From positions 1,903 to 65,902 of the IMG/VR virus record IMGVR_UViG_3300009703_002976: 64,000 bases of DNA; one strand, 5' to 3'. This document shows, one piece after another, positions 170 to 56,540 of this stretch. The stretch is from a virus. The notes beneath the pieces were generated by a model that saw nothing but the letters and a program-made list of their open reading frames with translations, had not been told where the DNA came from and did not search any database. Position 1 is the stretch's first letter, and every line of letters begins with the position of its first letter. The position numbers and the translations under genes were made by a program.

Positions 170-1295
170 TCTTGATGAGATCAAAAGAAAACCACAATTA
201 TTATCAATATTAGAAGAATTGAAACATGAAAAAGATTCAATTTTACTATTTGATATGCCCGAAGGATCAAGATTATGGCCATTAGACGAAGAAGAAGACT
301 TTTCTTATATTTTATTTTCAAAAGCACATGAAATTTTACAATATCACAAATTTGATGTTTGGTATTTGTGTTCTGATGTAAATATTAAGACCAGATATAC
401 AAAATGGTGTAAAAAAGTAGGTGTTGAAAAAAAGTTTAATGTATTATATTTTCCATTTACTGTTAGATTAGATGTTATTGATTATATCAAACAAGAACAC
501 GTTGATTCTCTCGCCAATATTCCTAAGAAAAAAAATTTTATACAATTAATTTGTAATCCTGATGTTTCTAGAATAGCAACTGTTAATCGTTATTATAAAC
601 ATCTAAATTATGAATATTCTTTAGTTCCTCAGTTTCATAATGATCATGAAAATAATTTTGATATAAAAAATAGAATACTTACAGAAATTGAATTGTCTGA
701 TATATGGATTAATGATGTTGATGGAGGTAAAGAGTTAAAAGATTGGGAAACAATTACTGTAAATAATAAAAAACTTAATAAATATATTTTTAATGCATTT
801 CTTCCTAAAGAAAGTTTTGAATCTTGTTGTGATGTAGTATTAGAAACTTATTTAGATGGTCCACTTTATTTTACTGAAAAAACATGGAAACAATTTTTGT
901 TTCAAAAGCCTTTTATTATGATAGGCACAAAAGGTATTAATCATTATTTACAAGATTTAGGATTTGAATTATATGATGAAATTTTTGATTATGATTATGA
1001 CTTAGAAGATAATAATATAAGAAGATTAGAGGGGTTTTGGACTCAAATAGAACGATATTTAGACCTTGATGTTTCTGATTTTGAGAAGAAACTTATTATA
1101 TTGAAAAAAAAGCTAATACATAATAGAAATACCTACATTAAATGGATATCAAATATAGATAACGTATTAAATGATCATCGACCAGAATATGATGAGTTGG
1201 CTCATTATTTCTATCTTTATTCTACTTTTTACGAAAAAGAATATTTACCAGATAAGGGGTTTAACATAATTAAAAAAATTTGTTTGGGGTGTTAA
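156..1295 (+). CDS. Putative glycosyltransferase-like protein (GT10/GT-B-like 'E..F.TEK' family), paralog 1
   Basis: C-terminal ETY...YFTEKTWK...KPFIMIG...LGFELYDEIFDYDYD block shared with 11009 and 27179; resembles the ENS..Y.TEK donor-binding motif of GT10. Confidence 0.5.
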   Translation: MITLNLDEIKRKPQLLSILEELKHEKDSILLFDMPEGSRLWPLDEEEDFSYILFSKAHEILQYHKFDVWYLCSDVNIKTRYTKWCKKVGVEKKFNVLYFPFTVRLDVIDYIKQEHVDSLANIPKKKNFIQLICNPDVSRIATVNRYYKHLNYEYSLVPQFHNDHENNFDIKNRILTEIELSDIWINDVDGGKELKDWETITVNNKKLNKYIFNAFLPKESFESCCDVVLETYLDGPLYFTEKTWKQFLFQKPFIMIGTKGINHYLQDLGFELYDEIFDYDYDLEDNNIRRLEGFWTQIERYLDLDVSDFEKKLIILKKKLIHNRNTYIKWISNIDNVLNDHRPEYDELAHYFYLYSTFYEKEYLPDKGFNIIKKICLGC

Positions 1296-1981
1296 TGGAT
1301 TATGATTTTACAATAAGTAGTCATTGTAACGCCGCATGTCCTTCTTGTAAGAGATATGAAAGTCACAATAATCCGATTAATTTATATAATGAACCTTTGC
1401 ATCCAGGATTAAATCAAATTCATATGGATTTTGATGAATTTAAATATATTATTGAAAGAGATATTAATTTATTTAAAAACAAACTTGTAACATTTGAAGG
1501 TGAACTTGGGGATCCTATGGTTCATCCACATATAAAATCTTTTATAAATTTTAGTACAGGTGTTTTTAAAAAATTAAAAATAGTTACTAATGGTGGAATT
1601 AGAAATGCAAAATTTTTTAATGATTTGGGAAATACATATAATAATTTAGAAATTATGTTTTCTATAGATGGTCTAGAAGATGATTTAAATGGGTTGTATA
1701 GAGTAAAAGTAAATACTAAAAAAGCAATTGGTAATATGGTTGCATTTGCTAAAAGTAAGTATGGAAAATCATGGGGAGTGAGTTGGCAATATCTTATTTT
1801 TGAACACAACTGGTTTGAAATACCAGAAGTTTTAGATTTTGCAAAATTATACAATATACCTATTGTATTAAAAATAAATACTCGACCTAAATTTAGAATA
1901 GAAGATAGATTAATACCTAGTGTTGTTAAACAATATGAAAAAAATAAATTTAAATTAAGCAATCTTGTTTTAGCGAATTAA
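1295..1981 (+). CDS. Radical SAM protein (core domain only, no SPASM)
   Basis: CNAACPSC motif, GELGDP, TNGG, FSIDG, WQYLIFEHN. ATG 1295 overlaps the previous TAA (track start 1280 is a TTG). Confidence 0.9.
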   Translation: MDYDFTISSHCNAACPSCKRYESHNNPINLYNEPLHPGLNQIHMDFDEFKYIIERDINLFKNKLVTFEGELGDPMVHPHIKSFINFSTGVFKKLKIVTNGGIRNAKFFNDLGNTYNNLEIMFSIDGLEDDLNGLYRVKVNTKKAIGNMVAFAKSKYGKSWGVSWQYLIFEHNWFEIPEVLDFAKLYNIPIVLKINTRPKFRIEDRLIPSVVKQYEKNKFKLSNLVLAN

Positions 1982-2670
1982 TGTTACCTGCAGAAACTTT
2001 TATATACAATTTTGAAATTACATCGTATTGTAATGCTGATTGTCCTAGTTGTTTTAGAACAATGAATAAAAGTAAATTGCCACTTAGACATTTAAAAGTT
2101 GAAGATTTCGAATTTTTAATATTAAACAATATAAATTTTATAAAAAATAATCGATACGAAATACAAATTGCAAAATTTTGTGGAGAAGTTGGAGATCCTC
2201 TGTTACATCCTAAGATTGATCAATTAATTGGTATAGCTGAAAGTGTGTTTAATAGAGTTGAAATTTATACAAATGGTGGACTTAGAAATACAACTTGGAT
2301 AAAAAATCTATTTAGACGATATGGAAAAACTCGTTTTGTGTTTGGTATTGATGGATTGTCTGATGAAACAAATCAAATGTATAGAGTTAATGTGAGAACT
2401 GATATTGCATTAAAAAATATGATTGAATCTGCAAAATATAGACCTACTAGATGGGAATATACGATATTTAGTCACAATTATTTAGAATTATTTGATGTGA
2501 TAATGTTTGCAAAAAAACACGACTTAAAGTTATTATGTAGATTTAATGGCCGAACTTTTAATAAACTTGATGATGAAAATATAGTTAAGTGTGAAACATT
2601 ACTTAAAAAACATAATACAGACTATTACATATGCAAAGAAGATGTGAGAATGAAGAAGAAATTAAAATAA
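1981..2670 (+). CDS. Radical SAM protein (core domain only)
   Basis: CNADCPSC, CGEVGDP, TNGG, FGIDG; TAATG coupling with the upstream gene. Confidence 0.9.
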   Translation: MLPAETFIYNFEITSYCNADCPSCFRTMNKSKLPLRHLKVEDFEFLILNNINFIKNNRYEIQIAKFCGEVGDPLLHPKIDQLIGIAESVFNRVEIYTNGGLRNTTWIKNLFRRYGKTRFVFGIDGLSDETNQMYRVNVRTDIALKNMIESAKYRPTRWEYTIFSHNYLELFDVIMFAKKHDLKLLCRFNGRTFNKLDDENIVKCETLLKKHNTDYYICKEDVRMKKKLK

Positions 2671-2936
2671 AATGTGATTTTTATAATTATGAATCTGCTA
2701 GTTGGAGTCAATATGAAATAGATTTAGATTTAAATGTATTTCCTTGTTGTCATTATTATATGGACCACACTTTAACTAAAAAACCTAATAAGCATATTAG
2801 TCATATAGATAATAGTCTTAAAACCAATTCTTTAAATAATATTTTTAAAGAATATGATAAAGTATTAAATGAAAAACTTTGGAAAAATAAAAAAACATGT
2901 CCTCCTCTTTGTATGAAAATTTGCCGAAAAAAATAA
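2631..2936 (+). CDS. Stand-alone SPASM/twitch-type Fe-S domain protein
   Basis: C...YEIDLDLNVFPCCHY...CPPLCMKIC resembles the C-terminal domains of fused rSAMs 34477, 35450 and 42064. Confidence 0.7.
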   Translation: MQRRCENEEEIKIKCDFYNYESASWSQYEIDLDLNVFPCCHYYMDHTLTKKPNKHISHIDNSLKTNSLNNIFKEYDKVLNEKLWKNKKTCPPLCMKICRKK

Positions 2937-3256
2937 ATAATAATCAACATAATTTACCTGAAGAATTTGAAGATTTGGTTTATTGTATAGGATGGCATGA
3001 ACATAAAAAATGGGCAGAAGTTGAAATAGCATCTGATTTTTCTGTATATCCTTGTTGTGCTTTACATGCAGAGCATCAATTAAATAAAAGATTCTTAGAT
3101 AAAAAATTAGATAGTTTTGATAAGGAATGGAATAATTTAAAGAAACATAAATTGAAAGATATCTTAAAAATATGGAGAGAACATATTAAACCAGAATTTT
3201 GGAAAAAAGAAAAAACATTACCCGAATGCTGTAAAACATTATGCAAGATAAAATAA
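2897..3256 (+). CDS. Stand-alone SPASM/twitch-type Fe-S domain protein
   Basis: YC...VEIASDFSVYPCC...LPECCKTLC; paralog of 2631..2936. Confidence 0.7.
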   Translation: MSSSLYENLPKKINNNQHNLPEEFEDLVYCIGWHEHKKWAEVEIASDFSVYPCCALHAEHQLNKRFLDKKLDSFDKEWNNLKKHKLKDILKIWREHIKPEFWKKEKTLPECCKTLCKIK

Positions 3257-4047
3257 TAATATTTGGAGATAGTTTTGCAGATCCTGCAGACAGAAAATAC
3301 GAAAATAAAAATGTAACAACGTGGTATGAATTTTTGAAATCAGATTATAAAATAACAAATCATGCTTTATCTGGTACAGGTCCTCACTATTCATTTAAAG
3401 AATATTATAATTTTATTTCTAGTGATAATAATAAAGAAGAGTATATTTGTATTTTTTTATTAAGTGGAGAAGATAGAATTCATTTCTATAATGCTGATCC
3501 CCAAACTATTACACATATTAATTGGAACTTTGATAAAAAAGAAAGTTGGTGGGCAGAAGATTCAAATTTAACGAAACAAAAAATATATTATGATACATTT
3601 AAATCTGAAATTGATTTTTTCTTTTTAACAATGCATGATGAATTAAAATGGTCTAATTTTAAAAATTTAGGATTCCTTTATATGAATTCTTTATTATTAA
3701 ATATGAAAACATTTGTATTTTGTACTTATGGTATTAAAATATTAAGTGGAATGGGTAATTTTTTAAATCTTACGCAACTTAATAATTCAAATTTTTATTT
3801 ATATCCAACTGAATTGGGATATATTGCTCATCAAGAATTTGTTGATTTAGAAACTGCTGGTGGTTATGATTTTGTAGATTATAGAAGAAATCATTTATCA
3901 CAAGAAAATCATAAAGTTTTATATGAAAATATAAAAAAAATGATTAAAAATGATTATGAATATATTCCGTTTGTTAAAAATATAAATCATTCTCAAAATC
4001 TTGGACAATTTCGTAATTCAAAAACAGGAAAATTTATTTATGAATAG
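3241..4047 (+). CDS. SGNH/GDSL-like hydrolase or acyltransferase, paralog 1
   Basis: N-terminal IFGDSF, G-x-G-P block, C-terminal NHLSQENH, ends FIYE. Confidence 0.65.
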   Translation: MQDKIIIFGDSFADPADRKYENKNVTTWYEFLKSDYKITNHALSGTGPHYSFKEYYNFISSDNNKEEYICIFLLSGEDRIHFYNADPQTITHINWNFDKKESWWAEDSNLTKQKIYYDTFKSEIDFFFLTMHDELKWSNFKNLGFLYMNSLLLNMKTFVFCTYGIKILSGMGNFLNLTQLNNSNFYLYPTELGYIAHQEFVDLETAGGYDFVDYRRNHLSQENHKVLYENIKKMIKNDYEYIPFVKNINHSQNLGQFRNSKTGKFIYE

Positions 4048-4903
4048 ATTATTTGTTTTTGGAGATAGTTTTAGTCATCCAAATAGAGTTGATATTGATA
4101 AATTGCCTTTATGTGAGTTTATTGATGATAAATTTTTTACATTTTATCGTATAGTAGCAGAAAAGTTAAAAGCTGAATGTTATAATTTTTCATTAAGTGG
4201 TTCTGGCCCACAATATACAATGCTTAAATTTCATCAGGCTTTGTATCATTATAAATTTAAAAAAAATGATTATATAGTTTTATTATTGTCAGATCCTAGT
4301 AGAGATTATAACCCTATAGAAAATGATATAGAAGAAGTAAAATATGTTGAATTAGGGGACAGACCTCATTATGGATTTGAAAATATAAGAAATCTTATAT
4401 ATCTTCAATATATGTCAAAATATTTTTTTCCAGAAGTCAAGTTTTTTTGTAATGTTATATGGAAAGAAAGTTCATTTTTTGAAGGTGAATATTATTCAAG
4501 TAGAGAAGGTGAATTTGGAATACACCAAAATGATTTTCCATCTAAAGATTTTAAATTTGAAAAGTTATATAATTTAAATGATAGTAATAATTGGTTTTAT
4601 TTGTGCGATTGTGAATTAGGTATTATTCATATGAAAGAATTTAAAAAAAAATACAAGATTTATATGTCTCATGAACGATTGCATTTTACACACAATGAAG
4701 ATTCACAATTTAAAGTAAAAGCAGAAGTCAATGATAGTAGAGTAAATCATATGAGTCAAAGAACTCATAATACTTTTGCTAATATTATTTTGGATTTTTT
4801 TATTAATAATAAAAGACCTATAAATACTGATAATTTTTTCGAAACTGGTTTTTTAGATTATGATGATCCACATTTAATTCCACAGGAATTTATATATGAA
4901 TGA
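4040..4903 (+). CDS. SGNH/GDSL-like protein, paralog 2
   Basis: VFGDSF, SGSGPQY, NHMSQRTH, ends FIYE. ATG 4040 has an upstream AGGA (track start 4001). Confidence 0.65.
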   Translation: MNRLFVFGDSFSHPNRVDIDKLPLCEFIDDKFFTFYRIVAEKLKAECYNFSLSGSGPQYTMLKFHQALYHYKFKKNDYIVLLLSDPSRDYNPIENDIEEVKYVELGDRPHYGFENIRNLIYLQYMSKYFFPEVKFFCNVIWKESSFFEGEYYSSREGEFGIHQNDFPSKDFKFEKLYNLNDSNNWFYLCDCELGIIHMKEFKKKYKIYMSHERLHFTHNEDSQFKVKAEVNDSRVNHMSQRTHNTFANIILDFFINNKRPINTDNFFETGFLDYDDPHLIPQEFIYE

Positions 4904-5630
4904 TTTTCATATTTTTGGAGATAGTTTTGGGGAAAATCCATTACATAGTGATTCTCCTGAATTTTGCTGGTTCAATAATTTAAAATTAAAAGTTGATGGA
5001 ACAGTTTTTAATTATTGCTTAGGATGTACTGGTCCAATAGAAAATTTAAAACTGCTTCTAGAAAAAAAATTAAAAGATACTAATATAATATTTTTGTTAT
5101 CTATAAAATACAGAATACCATTTCCTTTTTCGAAAGAACGTGGTCATAGTGAAGATTTTAAAGAAATTCATGATTCTCGCACTTCTCCTAGAAAAGAAGT
5201 TAATTATGCACTAGAATGGTTATATGAAATTGATATGGTTTATAACATGTTTGGAGATGAAATAGAAATGTCTCCTTTCTTATGTATATTATATTTACAT
5301 TTTTATGCTTTAAAAAATAATTGTAAAATATTGATTTTTTTATGTGATCCAAATGATGTTGCAAATGAAAATTATTTTTATTTTAATAATGAACATTTTA
5401 AAGTACATAGAAAAAATATTTGGCATATGAGTCAAGAAGAATTTCGAAACAGAATAATTGATCCTATTGAAGAAGAAAAAAGAGTTTCGCATATAAGTGA
5501 ATGTAATCATACAATCATGTTTAATATTATTTTAAATTTTTTTATGAATACTTCTTATAATGAATCATTTTATCAAAATTTATATGACGGATCAAAAGAA
5601 AAAATAAAAAATAGATTTATTTATGATTGA
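4896..5630 (+). CDS. SGNH/GDSL-like protein, paralog 3
   Basis: IFGDSF, GCTGP, SHISECNH, ends FIYD. Confidence 0.6.
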   Translation: MNDFHIFGDSFGENPLHSDSPEFCWFNNLKLKVDGTVFNYCLGCTGPIENLKLLLEKKLKDTNIIFLLSIKYRIPFPFSKERGHSEDFKEIHDSRTSPRKEVNYALEWLYEIDMVYNMFGDEIEMSPFLCILYLHFYALKNNCKILIFLCDPNDVANENYFYFNNEHFKVHRKNIWHMSQEEFRNRIIDPIEEEKRVSHISECNHTIMFNIILNFFMNTSYNESFYQNLYDGSKEKIKNRFIYD

Positions 5631-6315
5631 AAAAATAGAATACGATACTAAAAAATATAATTTTGTTAAAGTTTTTCAAGAATATTTTGAAGAAGATTTA
5701 ACAAAATTACATAAAAAACTTCAATTTGAACGTGAATTTTCGGAAATGGCAGGAGGAACAGAAGAGTTTGAAGTAGTATCACAAACTTATACAGATGTTA
5801 TTAAAACTTTAGCTTTTAATGATTTATGGATTGAATTTGTTGAAAATGTTATTAAATCATATTTTGATAATAAATCTATTTACATTCAAAAACTTCCTTC
5901 TTTTAGAATATTTCCTGCAGGACATTCTGTAAAATATGTTGAAAATACAACTGATGGATATAATAAACATTTAGATGCAGAGCCTCCTTATTATCATCCT
6001 AAATTTGAGAGCAGTTTTTGGATACCATTGACAGAATGTAATTATTTAAATGATTTTTATTATCAAGATGAATATGGATCATATCGAAGAGCAGATATAC
6101 GTATAAATGAATTGCTAATTTTTAGTAGTGATGTGATACATGGAAATAGTGTACATAATAAATCTTCTCAAACTAGATGTTCTTTGGATTTTAAAGGTTT
6201 AGCAGTAGATGATTATGATGAAACTATGTTGAGTGATCAAATGATTTTAAAAAGAGGCTCACCATTTAAACAAAAAGATTGGTATAGTACAAAACATTAT
6301 TATATGGAAATGTGA
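5623..6315 (+). CDS. 2OG-Fe(II) dioxygenase, StrG-like
   Basis: QKLPSFRI, HLD (HxD), FWIPLT, distal HG..HN, TRCSLDF. Confidence 0.65.
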   Translation: MIEKIEYDTKKYNFVKVFQEYFEEDLTKLHKKLQFEREFSEMAGGTEEFEVVSQTYTDVIKTLAFNDLWIEFVENVIKSYFDNKSIYIQKLPSFRIFPAGHSVKYVENTTDGYNKHLDAEPPYYHPKFESSFWIPLTECNYLNDFYYQDEYGSYRRADIRINELLIFSSDVIHGNSVHNKSSQTRCSLDFKGLAVDDYDETMLSDQMILKRGSPFKQKDWYSTKHYYMEM

Positions 6316-33404: not shown

Positions 33405-34489
33405 AACATTTTTGCATGGCTCCCTTTGTACACATTCAAAGAAATTCTTTTGGTGAATTTAATCCTTGTTGTATGTTTAGTGATAGAATTTATTCTGAAT
33501 ATAATTCTATATACGAAGCATTCAATAGTGGAGAGAATAATAATCTTAGACAAAGAATGTTAAATGATGAAAAAATAGAAGGATGTAATAAATGTTATAG
33601 AGATGAGTCTTTGGGAAAACACAGTTATAGACAACGTTTTAATGAAAGATATAAACAAGAATATATTGATAATCCAAAAATAAAAGAATTAGAATTAGCA
33701 TTAAGTAATAAATGTAATTATAAATGTGTAGACTGTAATACGAAATTTAGTTCTTCTTGGTATGAAGATGATCTGTTATTAGAAAGAACTCACTATACTT
33801 TTAAAGGACGAGATGTAAAAAATACAATTCATGAAGAAGATTTTAAAATCATGGATTTGAATGAAATAAAAATTTTAGGGGGCGAGCCATTTTTAGATAA
33901 AAGATATATTGATGTTTTTAAAAAAATAGATGCTGAAAATATTAAGTTGTTTCTTGTTACAAATAATTCTGTTTTCCCTAATAAAGAATGGATAGAACAA
34001 TTAAAAAGATTTAAACATATTAATTTTAATATTAGTATTGATGGTGTTCATGAAGTTGCAGAATTTGTAAGATATGGAACTAAATTTATAAAATTTGAAA
34101 AAAATTATAAAAAATGGTTGGATTTAAATTTTCATAATATAGACATAATTCCTCATTTTGTTTTTCATTCTTTAAATGTTTTAAACTTTGATCAGACGAT
34201 AGATTGGTTAATTGATGTTTATGATTCAGATATAGAAACAATATTAAATTATATTTCCTATGATTTTTTATCAATGCCTGAAATGTTAAATTGTTCATTT
34301 TTAACGGATGAATGTAAAAATATGATTGTTGATAATAGTGTTTATTTTAAAAATGAATTAGAAAATTTTCTTGAAAGCAATTCATATAATTCGACATATA
34401 TTGATGAATTGAAAAAATTTGTTTCTTTTTTGAATTTAAGAAGTGAAATACCCAATCAATCTTTTCAAGTTATATCATGTTTAAAATAA
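33401..34489 (+). CDS. Radical SAM protein with N-terminal twitch domain
   Basis: FCMAPF...PCC...CNKC; CNYKCVDC; GGEPF; SIDG. Confidence 0.9.
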   Translation: MKHFCMAPFVHIQRNSFGEFNPCCMFSDRIYSEYNSIYEAFNSGENNNLRQRMLNDEKIEGCNKCYRDESLGKHSYRQRFNERYKQEYIDNPKIKELELALSNKCNYKCVDCNTKFSSSWYEDDLLLERTHYTFKGRDVKNTIHEEDFKIMDLNEIKILGGEPFLDKRYIDVFKKIDAENIKLFLVTNNSVFPNKEWIEQLKRFKHINFNISIDGVHEVAEFVRYGTKFIKFEKNYKKWLDLNFHNIDIIPHFVFHSLNVLNFDQTIDWLIDVYDSDIETILNYISYDFLSMPEMLNCSFLTDECKNMIVDNSVYFKNELENFLESNSYNSTYIDELKKFVSFLNLRSEIPNQSFQVISCLK

Positions 34490-35463
34490 ATGTTATAGAA
34501 ATAGAATTGTCATCTCTTTGTAACGCAAAATGTTCTGCATGTATGCGTACTATATTAGATGAACGTGGAAAATATTATTTAAAAGATAATTTGCCTTTGA
34601 ATGAAATTGAATCGTGGTTTAATGACATAGATTTATCAAATACTAAAATAAAAATGTGTGGAGTATTGGGTGATCCAATGATTAATCCGGAATTGCATGA
34701 TATTGTTTTTTATTTTTTATATGAAAAACATGTAAGAGATATTGAAATGTCTACGAATGGTGGTACTCGTACACTTGATTTCTGGAAAGAATTGGGTATG
34801 TTATCAAAAAATTCGAATAAAAGATTTTATGTTCATTGGGCTATTGATGGAGTTACAAAAAATGACTATAGAGAAAACGTTGTACTCGATAGAGTATGGA
34901 ATAATATTAATGCTTACCATTCTACTGGCGGCCATAGTATCTGGCAGTATATCATTTTTGATTATAATGAAGACGAAGTTGAAATGGCCAGAGAAAAAGC
35001 AAAAGAAAATGGAATGAAATTTGCAACTCGTAAAAGTTGGAGAAATAATTCAGATTTTGCTAAAGTTAAATCTAGGGCCGCTAAAGAAATTGATGCTGAA
35101 AAGTATGAAGAAGTTGAAAAACGAGCATATGAGAAATCATATGAAGATGCAAAAATTGTATGTAGACATAAAGTAAAAGGAGAAATATACATTGGTGCAA
35201 ATAGAAGATTGTGGCCTTGTTGTCATTTATATGATGAAGATGTTGCTCAAAAAAATAATTCTATGAAACATTTATTTGAGTCTGTGGGACACAATTTTAA
35301 TGATTTAAATAAACATAGTATAAAAGATATTTTATCTGGTGAGTGGTATAAAAAGACTTTAGAAGATAGTTGGAATAAATTTCATCCTATGCATTTGCCT
35401 AGATGTTATTTGACATGTGGAGATGAAGGAAAACGAGCGGTTATTAAAAATGTGGAAAACTAA
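34477..35463 (+). CDS. Radical SAM/SPASM protein
   Basis: CNAKCSAC, CGVLGDP, TNGG, WQYIIF; C-terminal C...WPCC...CYLTC. Confidence 0.9.
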   Translation: MFKINVIEIELSSLCNAKCSACMRTILDERGKYYLKDNLPLNEIESWFNDIDLSNTKIKMCGVLGDPMINPELHDIVFYFLYEKHVRDIEMSTNGGTRTLDFWKELGMLSKNSNKRFYVHWAIDGVTKNDYRENVVLDRVWNNINAYHSTGGHSIWQYIIFDYNEDEVEMAREKAKENGMKFATRKSWRNNSDFAKVKSRAAKEIDAEKYEEVEKRAYEKSYEDAKIVCRHKVKGEIYIGANRRLWPCCHLYDEDVAQKNNSMKHLFESVGHNFNDLNKHSIKDILSGEWYKKTLEDSWNKFHPMHLPRCYLTCGDEGKRAVIKNVEN

Positions 35464-36379
35464 AACAGTAGAATGGATCGATGTTGAATTAACATCATTT
35501 TGTAATATAGCATGTCCTGGTTGTTTGAGACAAGAAAAAAGAAAACAAGTAGATCATATTTTAGATAAAGATATGATACAATTTTCTGATTTGCAAAAAT
35601 GGATCAGAAAAGAAGATTTCCCTAATTTAAAATTGCTTAATTTTTGTGGATCTGTAGATGAGCCCACAACACATCCTGAATTATTAGATATAGTAGAATA
35701 TTTTTTAACATTTACAGAGATAAATATTGCATCCAATGGATCGACTAAGACAAAAGATTTTTGGAAAAAATTAGGAGAATATGGTGTATCTGTATTTTTT
35801 GGTATTGATGGTATAGATCAGAAATCGTTAGAGAAATATAGAATAGGTTCTAGTTTTAAAAAAATACAGGAAAATTATAGAGCATTTATTAAAGCGGGGG
35901 GTAATGCTACTTGGCAATTTATAGTATTTGAACATAATGAACATCTTTTGGAAGATGCAAAAGCTCTTTCAGAAAAAGAAGGATTTACAAATTTTAGAAC
36001 AATATTTTCTCATAGAAAAGGAAGTGGAGAGATTGAAAAAAAGACAGTTGAAGAACAAGAGATATATTGTAAGTATGGACATCAAAAAAGACTTTTTATA
36101 AATCATACAGGAGCTTTGATACCATGTTGTTATTTAAACTCTGAAGCACTTGAATTACATGCTAATGAAACTATTAAAACTAAATTTGGGACAAAATATA
36201 TGGAATTAGATGGAGTGTTATCAAATAATCTTAAATATAATACAGTATCGGAAGTATTGAATGGAGAATTATTTAAATATATTATTGAATCTTGGAATGA
36301 TGATCCAGTTGAAAAGTGTTGGCAAACATGTAAACAGAAAAAAAGAGATATTTTTATAGATGAGAAAGTAACATGCTGA
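35450..36379 (+). CDS. Radical SAM/SPASM protein
   Basis: CNIACPGC, CGSVDEP, SNGS, WQFIVFEHN; C-terminal C...IPCC...CWQTC. Track start 35417. Confidence 0.9.
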   Translation: MWKTKTVEWIDVELTSFCNIACPGCLRQEKRKQVDHILDKDMIQFSDLQKWIRKEDFPNLKLLNFCGSVDEPTTHPELLDIVEYFLTFTEINIASNGSTKTKDFWKKLGEYGVSVFFGIDGIDQKSLEKYRIGSSFKKIQENYRAFIKAGGNATWQFIVFEHNEHLLEDAKALSEKEGFTNFRTIFSHRKGSGEIEKKTVEEQEIYCKYGHQKRLFINHTGALIPCCYLNSEALELHANETIKTKFGTKYMELDGVLSNNLKYNTVSEVLNGELFKYIIESWNDDPVEKCWQTCKQKKRDIFIDEKVTC

Positions 36380-41259: not shown

Positions 41260-42112
41260 TTATTGGGAAACAGGTTATTTTAAAAAAAAGAATCTTAGAT
41301 TTGTATTTCCAGTAAATCAACCTGGACTGGGTGATAGATTTATCATGGCCTCAAATATTCTTTTTACTATGAAAGAAGTTGAACACGAATCTTGTATTGT
41401 TGATATTTTTCTTAAAAACACAAAGACGGTGCATAAAAGCCAGTATTTAAATCTTATAGATTTTTATGATATTATAGATTTTTTTCATTTTAAAAGACCA
41501 GATGAAAGTGAATCATCAATAATTACAAATATAATAGATGAAGCTCCTCCTACATATAAAGAGATATTGGCTTCAAAACGAAAAAATATTACAGGTGATG
41601 TTGCTTGTCATGATTTTAATTCTAGATATAATGAATATGTTATAAGTAATTATTTTCTTTATAACGAAGCACGATATTGGCCTATAAATTATGATAAAAC
41701 TGCAAAAAAGCAACTTATAACATTTATGTTTTATGTAGATGATTCAGTACCCGAACATAAATTTATCACAACAGAGGAAGAAAAAGAATTTAATAAGGTA
41801 AAAGATTATTATGGACATTATTTTCATCGACATGAATATTATTTTGTTCGTTTAGAAGATTTTAATTATAAAAGAAATATAGAATTATTATCTAAAAGTT
41901 TGTTTTTAATAGCATCAGAAGGAATGTGGACCCATTTATCTAGAGCAATGAAAGTTAATACCATAGCATATTCTAGGGATATTACTTTTATTGAGGAATT
42001 TAATAAACAGGGACATTTTTGTTCTGGATTTTTTGAAAAATGTTTAATTGAATTAGAAAAAAAATGTATAGAATTAAAAAAGAAGAGCAACTTTATAAGT
42101 TTGAAGAGATAA
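41243..42112 (+). CDS. GT-B (GT9-like) glycosyltransferase-like protein, tandem copy B
   Basis: Same motifs; long near-identical DNA blocks with copy A. Confidence 0.45.
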   Translation: MNHRSSYWETGYFKKKNLRFVFPVNQPGLGDRFIMASNILFTMKEVEHESCIVDIFLKNTKTVHKSQYLNLIDFYDIIDFFHFKRPDESESSIITNIIDEAPPTYKEILASKRKNITGDVACHDFNSRYNEYVISNYFLYNEARYWPINYDKTAKKQLITFMFYVDDSVPEHKFITTEEEKEFNKVKDYYGHYFHRHEYYFVRLEDFNYKRNIELLSKSLFLIASEGMWTHLSRAMKVNTIAYSRDITFIEEFNKQGHFCSGFFEKCLIELEKKCIELKKKSNFISLKR

Positions 42113-43131
42113 AACATATACATTTTGAACCTACGCAAAGATGTCAGGCGGCGTGTCCTATGTGTGATAGAACTAATAATCCACATATAAAAAATGCTGA
42201 ACTTTCTATAGAACAATTTAAACAAATTGTAAATGCTAATTTAGCAAAACAATTAAATAGTTTTCTTATGTGTGGTAATCATGGAGATCCTATGATTGCA
42301 AAGGATACCCTTGAAATGTTTGACTGGTTACGCTATAATAATAATGAACTATATCTTCATATGACTACAAATGCTGGAGGACGATCTGATGATTGGTGGA
42401 AAAGACTTGCGGAAATTTTTGGTGATTATGGAAAAGTATCTTTTTCAGTAGATGGTTTAGAAGACACAAATCATTTATATCGAGTAAATGTAGATTGGAA
42501 TCGTGTTGAAAATTCAATGGATGTTTTTACTCAAGCAGGAGGAAAAGGTTATTGGGTATTTTTAATATTTGAACATAATGAACATCAAGTAGAAGAAGCA
42601 GAACGAATGGCTAAATTATTTGGACTTGAATTTGTGAGAAAAAAGTCTGGAAGATGGGTGCAAAGTTATAAAAATAAGAAAATTGACAAAAAGATAACCA
42701 CTAAGGGGAATGAGATTAAGCCACCAGCTAATCCAGAGAATCAGAATAAGAGTGTTAACAGTTATGATAAATTGATTAAAAGTCATGGTTCCTTTCAAGA
42801 GTATTTAGATAAAACAAAAATAAAATGTAAGTCAATAGATACTAAAGAAATTTTTATTTCAGCAGAAGGTCTTGTGACTCCTTGTTGTTGGACTGCTGGA
42901 AAATTATATAAAGTATATGAAAAAATAGGACAAAATCAAATATGGTCTTATATAGATGATATTAAAAATATTAATGCTTTATATAAACCTTTAAATGAAA
43001 TTATTGAAGGAGATTTTTTTAAAAAGATTAAACAATCTTGGAATTTGCCTTCTTGTTCACAAGGAAAATCAAAAGTTTGTGCAGAGAAGTGTGGTACTGA
43101 TTTTAACGCATTTGCAGATCAATGGAAATAA
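42064..43131 (+). CDS. Radical SAM/SPASM protein
   Basis: CQAACPMC, CGNHGDP, TNAG, FLIFEHNEHQ; C-terminal C...TPCC...CAEKC. Confidence 0.92.
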   Translation: MYRIKKEEQLYKFEEIKHIHFEPTQRCQAACPMCDRTNNPHIKNAELSIEQFKQIVNANLAKQLNSFLMCGNHGDPMIAKDTLEMFDWLRYNNNELYLHMTTNAGGRSDDWWKRLAEIFGDYGKVSFSVDGLEDTNHLYRVNVDWNRVENSMDVFTQAGGKGYWVFLIFEHNEHQVEEAERMAKLFGLEFVRKKSGRWVQSYKNKKIDKKITTKGNEIKPPANPENQNKSVNSYDKLIKSHGSFQEYLDKTKIKCKSIDTKEIFISAEGLVTPCCWTAGKLYKVYEKIGQNQIWSYIDDIKNINALYKPLNEIIEGDFFKKIKQSWNLPSCSQGKSKVCAEKCGTDFNAFADQWK

Positions 43132-50464: not shown

Positions 50465-50479
50465 TCATCAAAAGTGCTT

Positions 50480-53140
50480 ATGAAAATCCTATATATTACT
50501 CCTCACCTATCTACAGGTGGTGCCCCACAGTATCTTCTTAAAAAAATAGAATTCTTACATAGTGACAATGATATTTATGTCATCGAATATAATGATTATG
50601 GTATCTATAGAGTTCAAAAAGATAAAATATTAAACATTTTAAATGACCGATTAATAACTTTGTCTGAAGACAAAACTGATATACTGAAATATTTAGATGA
50701 AATAAAACCCCATATTGTTCACTTTGAGGAGATGCCTGAATTTTTTGTGGACGATGAAATAGCAGAACAAATTTATCAAAAAGAAAGAAGATATTTAATT
50801 TTTGAAACTTCTCATGATTCTTCATTCAATCCTGATGAAAAAAGATTTTTACCAGATAAATTTTTATTCTGTAGTGATAATCAATTAATAAAATTTAGAT
50901 CATTAGATGTTCCTGCATGTGTTATAGAATATCCTGTTGATAAAAAAGTAGAAGAGAAACGAAGAGATGTTGCTTTAAGAGAATTAGGAGTTGATCCTGC
51001 CTTGAAGCACGTATTGAATGTTGGATTATGGACATCTAGAAAAAATCAAGCAGAAATTATTGAATATGCCAAACTTTTACCTGATGTACAATTTCATTTT
51101 GTAGGGAATCTTGCAGAAAATTTCAAAGAATATTGGGAACCCCTAACAAAAGATTTGCCTGATAATTGTATCGTTTGGGGAGAACGAGAAGATGTAGACA
51201 GATTTTATTCATGTATGGATTTATTTTTATTTGCTTCAAGGGGGAATGAACACGATAAAGAAACGAATCCATTAGTATTAAAAGAAGCATTATCTTGGAA
51301 GATACCTGTTTTAGCACATAAACTTGATTCATATCTTGACAAATATAATGATAAAGTTACTTGGCTTTCTGATAATGTTGAAATTAATACAATTAAAATA
51401 TGCAGAATGTTGAATATAAGTGATCGAATTGTAAATTGTTCCATTGATGAAACTAAAGTAACTTTACACTTCACGAATTTTTATGAATGTTTTCATGAAA
51501 AATTATTATGTATCTATGAAATAGATACTGAATTGTTGGCGTATAGATCCCATATTATATGCAATTCGATGTGGGCTCAACCGCATTGTGGTAAAGATGT
51601 TACAAATGGATTTATAGTAAAAATATATGATGCTCCTAAAAATTATTTTTCGAATATAAATGATGAAAATTTAGTAGATGATCATCATCTTTTATTCGAA
51701 AAAACGTTTTCATGGAAAAATGAAGTAGATATTGCAGTTCTTGGTGAAAGAAAAAAATTTCATGGAATACCAGATGATCCCTCTTCTTGGTATACTCTTT
51801 ATGAAACGTTAATATTAAAATATTATAATAAATTAAATTTAATAGAAGGCGATACTGTAATTGATATTGGAGGTCACTATGGATTTTTTACTATGTACGC
51901 CTTAAACAAAGGTGCTTCTCAGGTTCATACAATTGAACCCACAAAAACAACTTTTGATGTTTTATGTAAAAATTTAAAAGATTATGATAATGTTAAAAAA
52001 TATAATTTAGCAATTTCTTCTGATAATGAAAGTAGAGAACTTATTGCTATTGGTTCTAGTTCATGTAATTCTTTTCATGAAAACTTTAATAATAGTCCAG
52101 ACAATAAAGAAAATTTAGGAATAAGAAAAAAACAAGTTGTTAATTGTGTTACACTTGAACAATTTATGAAAAATAATAATATTGATAGAATAGATGCATT
52201 GAAATTAGATTGTGAAGGAGCAGAATGGGATATGTTACCAGCAATTAGTGATGATTTTTTTAAGTATAAGATAAGAAAACTTTCTATGGAAGCACATCCA
52301 GATGGTGTGGGTCAAGAAGGAATGAAAAATAGGGCAATTGAATTTATAGAACGATTAGAGGGTTTAAATTATCATGTCATTGCTGATTCTCAAATAACAT
52401 CAAATGGAGAATTGGGTAATTTATGGGCATCAAGAAAACCAAAAATAAAAATAGTTCATATGCTTGTTGATCCTGATGGAGAAAGAGAAAAAGAATCGAT
52501 AAGACATCTTACAAAATTATCTGAATATTCGAACTGGAAATATGAACAAATAATAAATCCCTTATATAAAGATTTTCCACCAAAAGAAACATGTGCTAGA
52601 CCAGAATCTGTCCAAATGAAGCCAGGAGAATATAAATTAACTCCTGCACATTATGGTAATTATTCTGCTCATAAAGATGCTATAAACAAACATTTAAATG
52701 ATGAATTTGATGCGATTTTATTTTGTGAATGTGATGCTATTTTTATAAAACCGGTTCATGTGGTTTATAGAGAAATTATGGATAGATTAGATGATATAAA
52801 TCAATATGATTTGTATTATATGTCTTTTGGAAAAAGAATTCCTGATTGGGAACACGAAGACTATGAATATTTTGGTGTGACGAATAGAATGTCTGAAGCA
52901 CATTGTTATTTACTGCCCACAGATAAAAAGAGAAAATTATATTTTAGAAAGAAATTAAAAGACACGAAGTGGGATACATATGATTTATGGTTGAATAACA
53001 ATATATTTCCAGATAAGAAATGTGGCATAGTTAAATCTCCTATTTCAATTCAATGTTCAGGTGAGTCATATCTAGACAAATCTTTTAAAGATGGAACTAC
53101 TTTATTAACTGATGAAGAACTAACACATGAAACGTTTTAA
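50480..53140 (+). CDS. Multidomain protein: GT4-type glycosyltransferase + FkbM-family methyltransferase + C-terminal GT-A-like domain
   Basis: HLSTGGAPQY...KNQ...F.S....ETNPLVLKEALS (GT4); IDIGGHYG, EP, KLDCEGAE (FkbM); LFCECDA...HCY (GT25/GT-A-like). Track start 50474 is a GTG. Confidence 0.8.
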   Translation: MKILYITPHLSTGGAPQYLLKKIEFLHSDNDIYVIEYNDYGIYRVQKDKILNILNDRLITLSEDKTDILKYLDEIKPHIVHFEEMPEFFVDDEIAEQIYQKERRYLIFETSHDSSFNPDEKRFLPDKFLFCSDNQLIKFRSLDVPACVIEYPVDKKVEEKRRDVALRELGVDPALKHVLNVGLWTSRKNQAEIIEYAKLLPDVQFHFVGNLAENFKEYWEPLTKDLPDNCIVWGEREDVDRFYSCMDLFLFASRGNEHDKETNPLVLKEALSWKIPVLAHKLDSYLDKYNDKVTWLSDNVEINTIKICRMLNISDRIVNCSIDETKVTLHFTNFYECFHEKLLCIYEIDTELLAYRSHIICNSMWAQPHCGKDVTNGFIVKIYDAPKNYFSNINDENLVDDHHLLFEKTFSWKNEVDIAVLGERKKFHGIPDDPSSWYTLYETLILKYYNKLNLIEGDTVIDIGGHYGFFTMYALNKGASQVHTIEPTKTTFDVLCKNLKDYDNVKKYNLAISSDNESRELIAIGSSSCNSFHENFNNSPDNKENLGIRKKQVVNCVTLEQFMKNNNIDRIDALKLDCEGAEWDMLPAISDDFFKYKIRKLSMEAHPDGVGQEGMKNRAIEFIERLEGLNYHVIADSQITSNGELGNLWASRKPKIKIVHMLVDPDGEREKESIRHLTKLSEYSNWKYEQIINPLYKDFPPKETCARPESVQMKPGEYKLTPAHYGNYSAHKDAINKHLNDEFDAILFCECDAIFIKPVHVVYREIMDRLDDINQYDLYYMSFGKRIPDWEHEDYEYFGVTNRMSEAHCYLLPTDKKRKLYFRKKLKDTKWDTYDLWLNNNIFPDKKCGIVKSPISIQCSGESYLDKSFKDGTTLLTDEELTHETF

Positions 53141-56100
53141 ATTATCTCTTGTAACTTCTTGTTACAATGCTGAGTCTTATTTGGAAGAGTTAGCGAATTC
53201 TGTTTTTTATCAAAATTATGATCATTGGGAATGGATTCTTGCTGATGATTTTTCTGTTGATAATACTCGTACATTAATGGAAGAATTAAAAAGAAAAGAT
53301 TCTAGAATAAGAATTGTAGAACCCAAACATAAAAAAGAAATTTGGTGGAATCCACAACTTCATGCTGTTGGTGAAATAGTATGTCATTTAGATGCTGATG
53401 ATGCAATTTTACCTGGAACATTTGATAAAATAATACATTATTTTAATTTATTTCCAGAAGCAGTTTTACTTCATTTTAATGCAAACAAATATTTTAATAC
53501 CCTACCCCAAAATACAACTAATCTCTTTGATAATTTTAAAGACAATGTATACATGACAAGAGATAACAATTCTTTTTTAGAAGGATTTGAAAAGTTGTGG
53601 CCCCAACGAACAAATATTTTTGGATATTTGAGAATATTTAAAAATTTACCAGGATTGCATTTTCCAGAACATAAAGATGATGATGCTTGTTTATCAAATG
53701 ATGGACAATGGCTTTTACATTTAGAAAGATATGGAAAATGGTTAACTATTCCTAGAACATCATATCTTGCAAGAGAACACGGTGAATGTGAAAACTTTAG
53801 AAACTGGAATCCTCGTGGAGAAGCACAATTAGTAATAAATGAAAAAAGAGATAGAAATAATTTTATTTTAGAATATCCAAGAAATATTAAATATTTTGAT
53901 GATATCTATGATTTAGCAGAATCTACTTATTTGAGCAAATTGAATTATGAAACAGAAAGAAAAAATGTAAGTTTTTTAAATTTTAATTATGGTGAAGAAC
54001 AACGAACAAAAGTAAAACAATTATTTTTTGATCATGATATAGTTTTTGAAAAGTATCTAGACAATATTTCTTATTATTTTGTTAAAATAAATTTAGAAGA
54101 TACATCAGATACAATAAGAACAATTATATCTAAATTACCTGTAGCAAATTTTGAATTAAGTTTTTTTTCAGATAATGTGCATTTACATCAAAATAATCGT
54201 ACACAATCAGACAATATTGAAAATATAAAAGAGACTATTACATCAGATGGTCGAAGTGTTTTTTGGTATGCACAAGATAATCGAATACAATTTATTTCTG
54301 CTGTTCAACAAATAAAAGATGTTTCTGATATTGTTTTATCTACAGGAAATGCATATGTTTTAGAAAGAAAAAAAGAAAGAGAAGAAGAAAATAATAATTT
54401 AAAAATAATGCAAGTACATATTGGTTGTGGGCTTGATATTCCACCCAAAGGATATGGGGGATTAGAAGAAGTCATGTATCAATATATGAGAGTAGCAAAG
54501 GGTAGAGGACATGAAGTAGAGTTAAAATGGTTAGATGATATAACGCAAAGTGATTTAGAAAAATATGATGTATTTCATAATCATACTGGTGGATTTTATG
54601 ATTTATTGAGAGATAGATGTATACCTTATATTTTTACAATGCATGATGCTTTTGTGAAAATACATGGAAAAGATTCTCATTTTTATATGACTAATAATGA
54701 GACTATAAAAAATTCTTTATTCAGTTTAATTCCAACTGAAGATATGATAGATTTTTTTCTATATCCAGATAAGTTAAGAAGATTGCATCATGGTGTAGAT
54801 ACGAATTTTTATTTTCCTGTAAAAAACAAAAATGATGTACGATTGATTTGCGTGGGTGGAGGAGATGATAGAAAAGGATTTCATTTAGCAGTTCAGGCGG
54901 CAAAAACATTAGGACTTCCTATAACGATTGTTGGACCAGATTCAATACATGCAGTATATAATAAAACTTTTTATGATATTGTAGAAGAATGTAAAAATCA
55001 TATTGATATAACTCTTACAGGTAATGTAGAAAAATATGAATTAAGAAATATATTAAATGAACATCATATAATGATTCATCCAGCATCATTAGAAACAGGG
55101 CAACCCTGTCTTGCAGTTCTTGAAGCAATGGCGTGTGGATTACCTGTAGTTGGAACAATGCAAGATAAAATTTCTTTGAAAGGATTTGAATTATGTACTA
55201 GAGAAGTTGATGATATTGTAAATAAGGTTAAACTTGTTTTAAATGACTATGATGAATATTCAAAGAAAGCAAGAGAATTTGCTAAAGAAAGAGATTGGGA
55301 AAATATTTTTGATGAATTGGAAAAATATTATTATGAAGCAAAAGAATTAAAATATACTAAGCCATTTGATATGAAAGATAGATTGTTATTTGCGTATCAA
55401 AATACAGATGCAGATGGTAAAAATATTTTCGATTTAAATATGCAAAAAAATCCTTATTTGGCTGTTAAAGGATCTATTCCTGGAAATTATAAAATTAATT
55501 TTATTGATAGAGATACGGGTGGGGTTCATTATTCAAATGATGTTTCTGCGGGTGGCTGGGTTGCTTGTGGTATTGATTATTATGTTAATTGGAGAGTTGA
55601 AGCAATAAATGTTCAAACAGAAGAAATAGAATTTGAATATGAACAAGATTTTACAAATAAAAATATTTTTGTTTGGTTTGATTCAGTAGCATTGGGAGAT
55701 ACTTTAGCTTGGGTACCAGTTGTTGAAGCATTTCGCAAGAAACATAAATGTAAAATGTATTGTAGTACATTTTGGAACGATTTAGTATCTGAATCATACC
55801 CAGAAATAACCTTTATAACCCCTGAATCTGGATTTAATGATTTTGTATCTTCTTATCGAATAGGTTTTTTTGAAGAAAGTCTTCAATCTCCAGTAGATAT
55901 GAAAAATGTTTCGTTACAGAAATTATGTGCAGGTATTCTTGGTTTTAAAGATTTTGAAGAAACAAAATGTGAAATAATAGTTAAAGAAAGAGAGGAAGAT
56001 CCACAATTAATTCGAAAGCCTTATGTGTGCATTGGTATGCAATCAACTGCTCAAGCAAAATATTGGAATTATCCAGGAGGATGGGATGAGGTGGTTGACT

Positions 56101-56540
56101 TTTTATCCAAAAAGGGATATAATATAGTATGTATAGATAAACACCATTCTTTTGGACAAGGAGAATATTTTAATAAATCACCAAAAAATGTGATAGGAAG
56201 ACATGAACGAACTTTAGATCAAACAATTGCTACTTTAAATGGTGCTGAATTTTTTATTGGATTGGGTTCTGGTTTATCGTGGTTGGCGTGGTCTTTAAAT
56301 AAATATGTAGTAATGATATCGGGATTTAGTAATCCTATATCTGAATTCTCTTCAAAATGTTTTAGAATCCATAATGATACAGTTTGTAATAGTTGTTATA
56401 ATCGGCATAAATTTGATCCCGGTGATTGGTTGTGGTGTCCAGATCATAAAAATACTGACAGAATGTTTGAATGCACAAAAAACATTGAACCAGTAAAAGT
56501 TTGTGATGCTATTGAAGAAGTAATAAAACTAATAGACTAA
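53127..56540 (+). CDS. Multidomain glycosyltransferase: GT2 + GT4 + autotransporter O-heptosyltransferase (TibC/Aah-like)
   Basis: VTSCYN..ADDFS.D..DADD (GT2); PPKGYGGLE...RKG...ETGQPCLAVLEAMACG (GT4); DSVALGDTLAW, STAQAKYWN, FIGLGSGLSWLAW, VCNSCYN, WCP, FECTK (heptosyltransferase with Fe-binding cysteines). Confidence 0.85.
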   Translation: MKRFKLSLVTSCYNAESYLEELANSVFYQNYDHWEWILADDFSVDNTRTLMEELKRKDSRIRIVEPKHKKEIWWNPQLHAVGEIVCHLDADDAILPGTFDKIIHYFNLFPEAVLLHFNANKYFNTLPQNTTNLFDNFKDNVYMTRDNNSFLEGFEKLWPQRTNIFGYLRIFKNLPGLHFPEHKDDDACLSNDGQWLLHLERYGKWLTIPRTSYLAREHGECENFRNWNPRGEAQLVINEKRDRNNFILEYPRNIKYFDDIYDLAESTYLSKLNYETERKNVSFLNFNYGEEQRTKVKQLFFDHDIVFEKYLDNISYYFVKINLEDTSDTIRTIISKLPVANFELSFFSDNVHLHQNNRTQSDNIENIKETITSDGRSVFWYAQDNRIQFISAVQQIKDVSDIVLSTGNAYVLERKKEREEENNNLKIMQVHIGCGLDIPPKGYGGLEEVMYQYMRVAKGRGHEVELKWLDDITQSDLEKYDVFHNHTGGFYDLLRDRCIPYIFTMHDAFVKIHGKDSHFYMTNNETIKNSLFSLIPTEDMIDFFLYPDKLRRLHHGVDTNFYFPVKNKNDVRLICVGGGDDRKGFHLAVQAAKTLGLPITIVGPDSIHAVYNKTFYDIVEECKNHIDITLTGNVEKYELRNILNEHHIMIHPASLETGQPCLAVLEAMACGLPVVGTMQDKISLKGFELCTREVDDIVNKVKLVLNDYDEYSKKAREFAKERDWENIFDELEKYYYEAKELKYTKPFDMKDRLLFAYQNTDADGKNIFDLNMQKNPYLAVKGSIPGNYKINFIDRDTGGVHYSNDVSAGGWVACGIDYYVNWRVEAINVQTEEIEFEYEQDFTNKNIFVWFDSVALGDTLAWVPVVEAFRKKHKCKMYCSTFWNDLVSESYPEITFITPESGFNDFVSSYRIGFFEESLQSPVDMKNVSLQKLCAGILGFKDFEETKCEIIVKEREEDPQLIRKPYVCIGMQSTAQAKYWNYPGGWDEVVDFLSKKGYNIVCIDKHHSFGQGEYFNKSPKNVIGRHERTLDQTIATLNGAEFFIGLGSGLSWLAWSLNKYVVMISGFSNPISEFSSKCFRIHNDTVCNSCYNRHKFDPGDWLWCPDHKNTDRMFECTKNIEPVKVCDAIEEVIKLID

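Follow-up and report, generated by a model that had tools for sequence, protein, structure and literature searches.

Four small overlapping genes at positions 1295-3256 of the DNA analysed here raise the question of whether a radical S-adenosylmethionine (SAM) enzyme can be divided between two polypeptides, a catalytic core and a separately encoded auxiliary-cluster domain. This DNA (the window) is a stretch of 64,000 nucleotides with a GC content of approximately 27%, corresponding to positions 1,903 to 65,902 of IMG/VR virus record IMGVR_UViG_3300009703_002976, the whole of which is 87 kb in length. To our knowledge, the auxiliary-cluster domain is contained within the catalytic polypeptide of all characterised twitch/SPASM radical SAM enzymes, and because the domain is fused, its role (i.e., electron relay, substrate ligation or structural lid) is hard to isolate. 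The genes described here look like a natural two-piece version of this well-known enzyme type. In the explanation that we favour, at a probability of roughly 75%, they belong to a radical SAM family, carried by marine T4-like phages, whose split is ancient and stable; in this family, a free twitch/SPASM-like domain and its core, later duplicated as a pair, are produced from separate cistrons and would dock as cognate partners.

Organization and conservation of the split genes

The four open reading frames (ORFs) of the module lie in succession on the + strand, with a step to the -1 frame from each to the next, within a large co-directional island in which radical SAM, glycosyltransferase and sugar-tailoring-like genes are abundant. 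The first two, core1 (1295-1981, 228 amino acids, motif CNAACPSC) and core2 (1981-2670, 229 amino acids, motif CNADCPSC), encode paralogous radical SAM catalytic subunits without an auxiliary domain that are 38% identical to each other. The last two, spA (2631-2936, 101 amino acids) and spB (2897-3256, 119 amino acids), encode free auxiliary-domain proteins that are 33% identical. The stop codon of core1 overlaps the start codon of core2 in the sequence TAATG (1979-1983), and overlaps of 40 nucleotides (nt) were noted both between core2 and spA (2631-2670), where the overlap holds a 30-nt in-frame insertion (2638-2667), and between spA and spB (2897-2936), where the CxxxCxxxC motif of spA is overprinted by the spB N-terminus. 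At the GC content of the window, stops make up approximately 8.5% of random codons, and the probability of an open frame arising by chance, calculated from composition, is approximately 1e-4 for 101 codons and 3e-5 for 119 codons.

Identification of core1 and core2 as catalytic subunits was based on their ORFs, Pfam matches and homologs and, for core1, also on structure prediction. The CxxxCxxC motif is present in both, with C11, C15 and C18 invariant in 28 homologs, and no other conserved Cys was noted in the alignment of these homologs, so any auxiliary cluster would have to be held by the small protein alone. Scores against Pfam Radical_SAM (PF04055; gathering score 29.5) were 32.0 bits for core2 and 20.2 bits (E 7e-4) for core1, the latter below the gathering score. 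The AlphaFold2 (AF2) model of core1, with a mean predicted local distance difference test (pLDDT) score of 83, consisted of a complete (beta/alpha)6 barrel followed by a conserved C-terminal strand (residues 222-227). Foldseek matched this model at probability 1.0 to SkfB (the best match), viperin, DesII, SuiB, anSME and MoaA, and CteB was also matched.

In alignments, both cores end at the point where three fused paralogs encoded on the same strand of the window (34477-35463, 35417-36379 and 42064-43131) run on into a C-terminal C...PCC...CxxxC domain, and it is with this domain that spA and spB align. Comparison by hhalign of the family of free small proteins (the sp family) with the C-terminal domains of fused relatives gave a value of 98.8% (E 1.2e-16), and a hidden Markov model (HMM) of the sp family, run over the whole window, gave only five matches, two of them spB and spA themselves and the other three the C-terminal ends of the fused paralogs. 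The closest domain in the window was that of the paralog at 34477 (independent E-value, iE, 3.7e-13; residues 219-328 of stop-to-stop ORF 34447-35460), followed by those of the paralogs at 35417 (iE 5.9e-07) and 42064 (iE 1.4e-04). Matches to both Pfam Radical_SAM and Pfam SPASM were noted for the paralogs at 34477 and 42064, while the paralog at 35417 was the only one with a SPASM match above the Pfam gathering score (25.0 bits vs a cut-off of 21.5). The assignment of spB drew in addition on a sub-threshold Pfam SPASM match, an AF2 model and the position of its relatives beside core1-type genes. An earlier note made from the sequence alone had described the genes at 1295 and 1981 as cores that stop where fused paralogs continue and those at 2631 and 2897 as the missing domain alone; the first description was borne out by agreement between the ORFs, the CxxxCxxC motif, Pfam and alignment, and the second by alignment, the sp HMM and hhalign.

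Short forms only were found in protein databases. Thus, 61 core1 homologs (46-100% identity) were approximately 226-242 amino acids in length, except one with an N-terminal extension, 42 core2 homologs were 213-277 amino acids in length, and the fused form was absent among both sets. The 28 relatives of spB obtained from a length-unrestricted HMMER search of 1.84 billion protein representatives were all 48-188 amino acids in length, and none was fused. A metagenome protein of 347 amino acids (P0040), a core1 homolog of 54% identity, was considered as a possible fused form and discarded, its extra length being a 110-residue N-terminal extension that contains no auxiliary domain.

Two scans of viral contigs, one with spB and one with aligned core1 homologs, gave 91 loci, and the stop-to-stop ORFs of the 80 loci from the core1 scan (L017-L096) were scored with a core HMM and the sp HMM. 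The arrangement of two cores followed by two small proteins (2+2), whose occurrence in related genomes was a question raised by the earlier note, was found, in the order core1-core2-spA-spB, in approximately ten distinct viral sequences (the window, L017, L018, L019, L022, L023, L029, L031, L032-38 and L040). These sequences are from independent metagenome assemblies, and core1 in the 2+2 contigs is 50-79% identical to core1 of the window. Contigs with a single pair (1+1) were of three types, with the core gene first in L039 and in L043 and the sp gene first, overlapping the core gene by 1 nt, in L025-28. The layout of L047 was core-sp-core-sp. Relatives at 38% identity or less were all fused and 340-420 amino acids in length, L050 being the sole exception. 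Roughly 120 viral contigs have relatives. Relatives that could be placed were from viral contigs or had no assigned origin; an alignment-based scan of cellular genomes gave only three distant relatives (30-32% identity), GenBank phages gave no relative of the module by blastn of positions 1000-5000 or by tblastn of core1 and spB, and a pattern scan of viral contigs with core2 alone gave no match.

A table of the gene junctions showed a separate ATG for every gene in each lineage, retention of the spA ATG in all related contigs and overlaps that vary across lineages (1, 4, 8, 10, 13, 14, 20 or 40 nt). The 1-nt overlap of core1 and core2, as either TAATG or TGATG, is kept in most related 2+2 contigs, and the overlap of spA and spB is 40 nt in the closer lineages (58 nt by the first ATG in L018) and, in L031, L032 and L040, which are deeper lineages, 4-13 nt. 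These junctions bear on the possibility that programmed -1 frameshifting or read-through of stops joins core2 and spA, and perhaps the products on either side of other junctions, in translation. The -1 frame of spA relative to core2 in the window, the 40-nt overlap of these genes and the sequence A-AAA-TAA at 2664-2670, which permits a slip of Lys-tRNA, are all compatible with such joining, as is the location of core and sp in the same frame in L043. However, this only possible slip site lies within the 30-nt insertion, and five aligned relatives, in which the overlap is 10 nt (ATGCAAATAA), have TGC-AAA-TAA instead. No slippery heptamer is conserved among the core2/spA overlaps, which are 4, 8, 10 or 40 nt depending on lineage; spA of L031 is in the +1 frame of core2 and would need a +1 rather than a -1 shift; two consecutive stops precede the ATG in L043 (TAA TAA ATG); and no shift could fuse the products of L025-28 in the normal order, given that sp is upstream of core. 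Joining in translation is accordingly rated as very improbable, and the caveat of the earlier note, which allowed for a single gene made up of 1981 and 2631 through a -1 shift, is refuted by the approximately ten contigs with separate ORFs and varied overlaps. The insertion at 2638-2667 is open in both frames and missing from the five aligned relatives; core2 gains the sequence EDVRMKKKLK from it, and spA gains RRCENEEEIK, which includes an additional Cys.

Even less probable is the view that the four ORFs are functionless, decaying fragments or products of sequencing or assembly frameshifts. Such a view takes some encouragement from the tendency of hypervariable phage islands to gather fragments, from the frameshifted copy of a fused gene carried by L050 and from somewhat relaxed ratios of nonsynonymous to synonymous substitution (dN/dS) for core2 and spA between close relatives (up to 0.66). 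Against it, independent metagenome assemblies at 50-80% identity have the gene boundaries in common, the catalytic motifs of the cores and all six Cys of the small proteins are conserved, and databases contain dozens of clusters for the short forms but not one for a fused form. Values of dN/dS by the Nei-Gojobori method ranged from 0.13 to 0.37 for core1, 0.16 to 0.66 for core2, 0.15 to 0.60 for spA and 0.13 to 0.40 for spB, and were thus below 0.7 in all four genes and between 0.13 and 0.43 at larger divergences. All four genes are under purifying selection. In place of the fused homologs and decayed fragments for which the earlier note had allowed, no fused homologs and selection of this kind were found. 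Sequencing error, gene decay and programmed frameshifting are rejected as causes of the split, and the fission that the earlier note had read from the TAATG coupling of the genes at 1295 and 1981 as real in at least one case is, with the coupling itself confirmed, real for both enzymes.

The exceptional gene of L050 (3444-4708) is broken into ORFs of 304 and 122 amino acids in different frames and is represented by a fused protein of 422 amino acids in L052, L053, L058 and L070. Unlike the conserved split, this break probably marks either an erroneous frameshift or a pseudogene of recent origin.

History and pairing of the cores and small proteins

In a careful, unrooted maximum-likelihood tree of 47 cores, the 33 domain-less cores were parted from the 14 fused cores by a branch with support of 100/99, a topology that would fit a single fission. 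Among the domain-less cores, the two from L047 branched first, followed by separation of a core2 clade (support 100/99 for the 12 rows around core2 of the window and 97/91 for 14 rows that include the metagenome proteins P0104 and P0105) from a core1 clade (99/91). This order indicates that duplication hit genes that were already split. The tree of small proteins mirrored that of the cores, with an spA clade (support 98) that contained the inner groups of core2 and an spB clade (support 98) that contained those of core1.

Partnership between particular cores and small proteins was also evident from the 1+1 contigs (L025-28, L039 and L043), in which a core1-type gene was always accompanied by an spB-type gene, in both gene orders. 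In both trees, L025 and the 2+2 contig L023 are sisters (support 100/99 for cores and 98 for small proteins), so L025 derives from loss of the middle pair, which is contiguous, and a change in gene order; the careful core tree gave L039 no firm position. Because the trees mirror each other and the 1+1 contigs always combine a core1-type with an spB-type gene, the sequences point to partnerships that are fixed, spB belonging with core1 and spA with core2, in the nested arrangement core1 [core2 spA] spB.

Two less specific arrangements were weighed against fixed pairs. The contiguity and overlap of the four genes in approximately ten lineages, together with the many other radical SAM genes in the island, might mean that all four proteins form one hetero-oligomer, or that the small proteins are interchangeable between the cores and perhaps serve other radical SAM proteins of the island as well. 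Core1 and spB are sufficient alone in the 1+1 contigs, however, a mismatched pair was noted in none of the contigs scored, the two trees are mirrored, and the divergence of spA from spB and of core1 from core2 suggests specialisation. We consider these arrangements unlikely, and the suggestion of the earlier note that auxiliary domains are possibly swappable between cores finds no support in the mirrored trees or in the 1+1 contigs, where core1-type genes are always associated with spB-type genes. A related idea, in which the free small proteins are dissociable Fe-S subunits and one of them serves, regulates or redox-gates several radical SAM enzymes of the island as a trans-acting cofactor protein rather than a fixed subunit, which would let the phage combine its cores with different auxiliary clusters, is doubtful to the same extent.

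The neighbours of the pair differ in contigs with the order spB-then-core1, which indicates that the pair is relocated within the island. In these contigs, as in L013 (2471-4002 and 5031-6047), the pair is flanked by two radical SAM genes of a different type (CNRxCxFC), the products of which have a C-terminal Cys-rich tail, and a gene for a 338-residue protein that ends in GGVHC and is presumably amidinotransferase-like.

The free auxiliary domain and its proposed role

Six conserved Cys were identified in each small protein. In spA these are C15, C39, C40, C91, C95 and C99 (spacing C-x23-CC-x50-C-x3-C-x3-C) and in spB they are C30, C53, C54, C110, C111 and C115 (spacing C-x22-CC-x55-CC-x3-C). 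The AF2 model of spB (pLDDT 88.6) had, in order, C30, a beta-hairpin (residues 43-51), the sequence P52-C53-C54, several helices and, in the last helix, C110, C111 and C115. A twitch domain carries one auxiliary cluster. In its published definition (PMC6231123), a first Cys precedes a beta-hairpin, a second follows it and two more come after a later helix, an order with which the Cys and secondary structure of the spB model agree. The twitch assignment is thus made from homology to the fused domains and from the order of these elements, rather than from a structural match. Residues 1-26 of the model were of low confidence and are probably disordered. Their coding sequence (2897-2975) overlaps the CxxxCxxxC motif of spA, and spB is shorter in L031, L032 and L040; it looks as though the spB start codon moved upstream and overprinted spA.

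Small Cys-rich ORFs beside radical SAM genes are typical of clusters for peptides that are ribosomally synthesized and then modified post-translationally (RiPPs). By this neighbourhood, spA and spB could be RiPP-like peptide substrates of the cores or, alternatively, free ferredoxin-like electron carriers, a dissociable redox partner and a subunit being indistinguishable by sequence. Both small proteins, however, show full-length homology to the auxiliary domain present in fused enzymes and, unlike leader and core peptides, are conserved throughout; their predicted fold is compact and each has diverged one-to-one with a particular core. Either role is therefore judged to be quite unlikely, though not as improbable as joining in translation.

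In the split-family explanation favoured here, one fission would have separated the (beta/alpha)6 core from a C-terminal twitch/SPASM-like auxiliary domain, leaving the latter as a free protein of approximately 100 amino acids with six conserved Cys, and the already split pair would then have been duplicated to give the nested module. The four cistrons would be translated separately, probably with coupling by the stop/start overlaps, which would help to equalize amounts of the proteins. Given that the split is real and conserved for both enzymes, provision of the auxiliary domain in trans would be the natural conclusion to draw from the sequences. Each small protein would bind an auxiliary Fe-S cluster, most likely one [4Fe-4S] cluster in the twitch pattern, the candidate ligands being single Cys on either side of the hairpin and two Cys of the last helix. 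Non-covalent docking of spB on core1 and of spA on core2 would rebuild a normal two-cluster enzyme, and the conserved C-terminal strand of the core may, as a matter of speculation, take part in docking.

Several points weigh against this explanation. The score of spB against Pfam SPASM (PF13186; gathering score 21.5) was only 16.1 bits (E 0.014) and spA gave no match; 7 of 18 sp family members matched at E <0.1 (best 3.8e-4), with every free protein below the gathering score. The seven-Cys SPASM motif (CX9-15GX4C-gap-CX2CX5CX3C-gap-C), including its CX2CX5CX3C segment, is absent from spA, spB and their family. Structural searches with the spB model gave a best E of approximately 5 with Foldseek and no Z of 2 or more with VIA-align, and a sequence search of the Protein Data Bank with both family profiles gave no match. 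That the event was a fission rather than a fusion we infer from the fused form being the rule elsewhere and not from a rooted tree, and the physical complex, Fe-S binding and activity are likewise proposed from sequence. The term SPASM, applied in the earlier note to the domain of spA and spB, proved to be a loose label for proteins with six conserved Cys and no seven-Cys motif, and twitch-like is closer.

Relation to known enzymes and phage setting

Among characterised enzymes, the twitch radical SAM proteins BtrN, SkfB, MoaA and SpeY are most readily compared with the split enzymes, having a (beta/alpha)6 core with CxxxCxxC and an order of auxiliary Cys around the hairpin and helix like that of the spB model, as in the published definition (PMC6231123). 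SpeY and CteB were the top Foldseek rows for this model, although not significant. In twitch enzymes the domain is in the same polypeptide and has three or four Cys, whereas in the phage it is encoded by a separate gene and has six conserved Cys. SPASM enzymes (anSME, PqqE, AlbA, MftC, CteB and SuiB; PF13186) resemble the phage proteins through weak PF13186 matches and through structural matches of the cores to anSME, SuiB and CteB. They differ in that their domain is fused and has the seven-Cys motif, which binds two clusters (PMC6231123), whereas the phage domain is unfused, lacks the motif and does not have enough Cys to ligate two clusters fully. The fused paralogs of the island (34477, 35417 and 42064) and viral relatives (L044, L052, L059, L065 and others) share the core, the C...PCC...CxxxC domain and the type of phage island with the split enzymes but are 320-420 amino acids in length, no more than 38% identical to the split cores and on the opposite side of the 100/99 branch.

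Looser parallels were noted with other families. The PqqD/RRE (RiPP recognition element) domain is fused in some radical SAM enzymes and a separate protein in others, as here, PqqD having been described as a standalone RRE (PMC6231123); it is, however, a peptide-binding domain, unlike the phage auxiliary-domain proteins. In the N_Twi_rSAM family (NCBIfam NF033640) the auxiliary domain lies N-terminal to the core, a parallel to the sp-then-core order in L025-28, but only weak matches in the core region were obtained here (37 bits for core1 and 27-47 bits for the fused paralogs vs a curated cut-off of 170). TIGR04304 ('GeoRSP_SPASM'), a curated NCBIfam family with SPASM in its name and a model of 293 positions, had no match in this genome.

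In the literature, no paper on a free twitch/SPASM Fe-S subunit was found. A natural and conserved two-piece version would provide a ready system in which the core can be studied with or without its auxiliary subunit and subunits can be exchanged between two paralogous pairs, so that the contribution of the auxiliary cluster can be asked about directly. Gene callers and domain databases tag the cores as plain 'radical SAM' and their partners as hypothetical proteins, and as a result the family is invisible in annotation. The split genes also add a concrete element to the radical-SAM-rich islands, so far unexplained, that marine T4-like phages carry, similar regions having been reported in genomes of this group (PMC5332604, PMC7029224).

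The window itself encodes a T4-type gp32, which is 55-65% identical to gp32 of T4-like cyanophages, and a T4-type baseplate hub. The island occupies approximately 48 kb (156-48619) of co-directional, mostly overlapping genes, many of them for radical SAM proteins. Directly upstream of core1 is a + strand gene for a protein of 379 amino acids with no assigned function (156-1295), which had no Pfam or NCBIfam match, was 48-77% identical by tblastn in L006-L011 and L016, and was in synteny with the module in those 2+2 contigs to which tblastn was applied. Downstream of spB, on the same strand, is a gene for a protein of 268 amino acids with an FGDSF motif (3241-4047; 50-75% identity by tblastn in L006-L011), which was syntenic with the module in most of these contigs; this product, labelled SGNH-like in the earlier note, had no Pfam or NCBIfam match.

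A C...PCC...CxxC domain was noted N-terminal to the core in several radical SAM proteins of the island (33401, 36373 and 38970), and a similar Cys pattern is therefore present in the window in N-terminal, C-terminal and free forms. The sp HMM run on the window did not detect the N-terminal domains of these three candidates.

As for substrate, the split enzymes would probably tailor a sugar-like or glycan molecule made by the surrounding island, and by analogy with this gene context a sugar or glycan is plausible. A weak match to NCBIfam TIGR04324 ('sporadic carbohydrate cluster 2OG-Fe(II) oxygenase'; E 3.5e-06, below cut-off) at 5623-6315 hints at carbohydrate tailoring by the island. Just past the island, two very large ORFs at 53127-56540 (1137 amino acids) and 50474-53140 (888 amino acids) had PHROGs matches to glycosyltransferase and methyltransferase.

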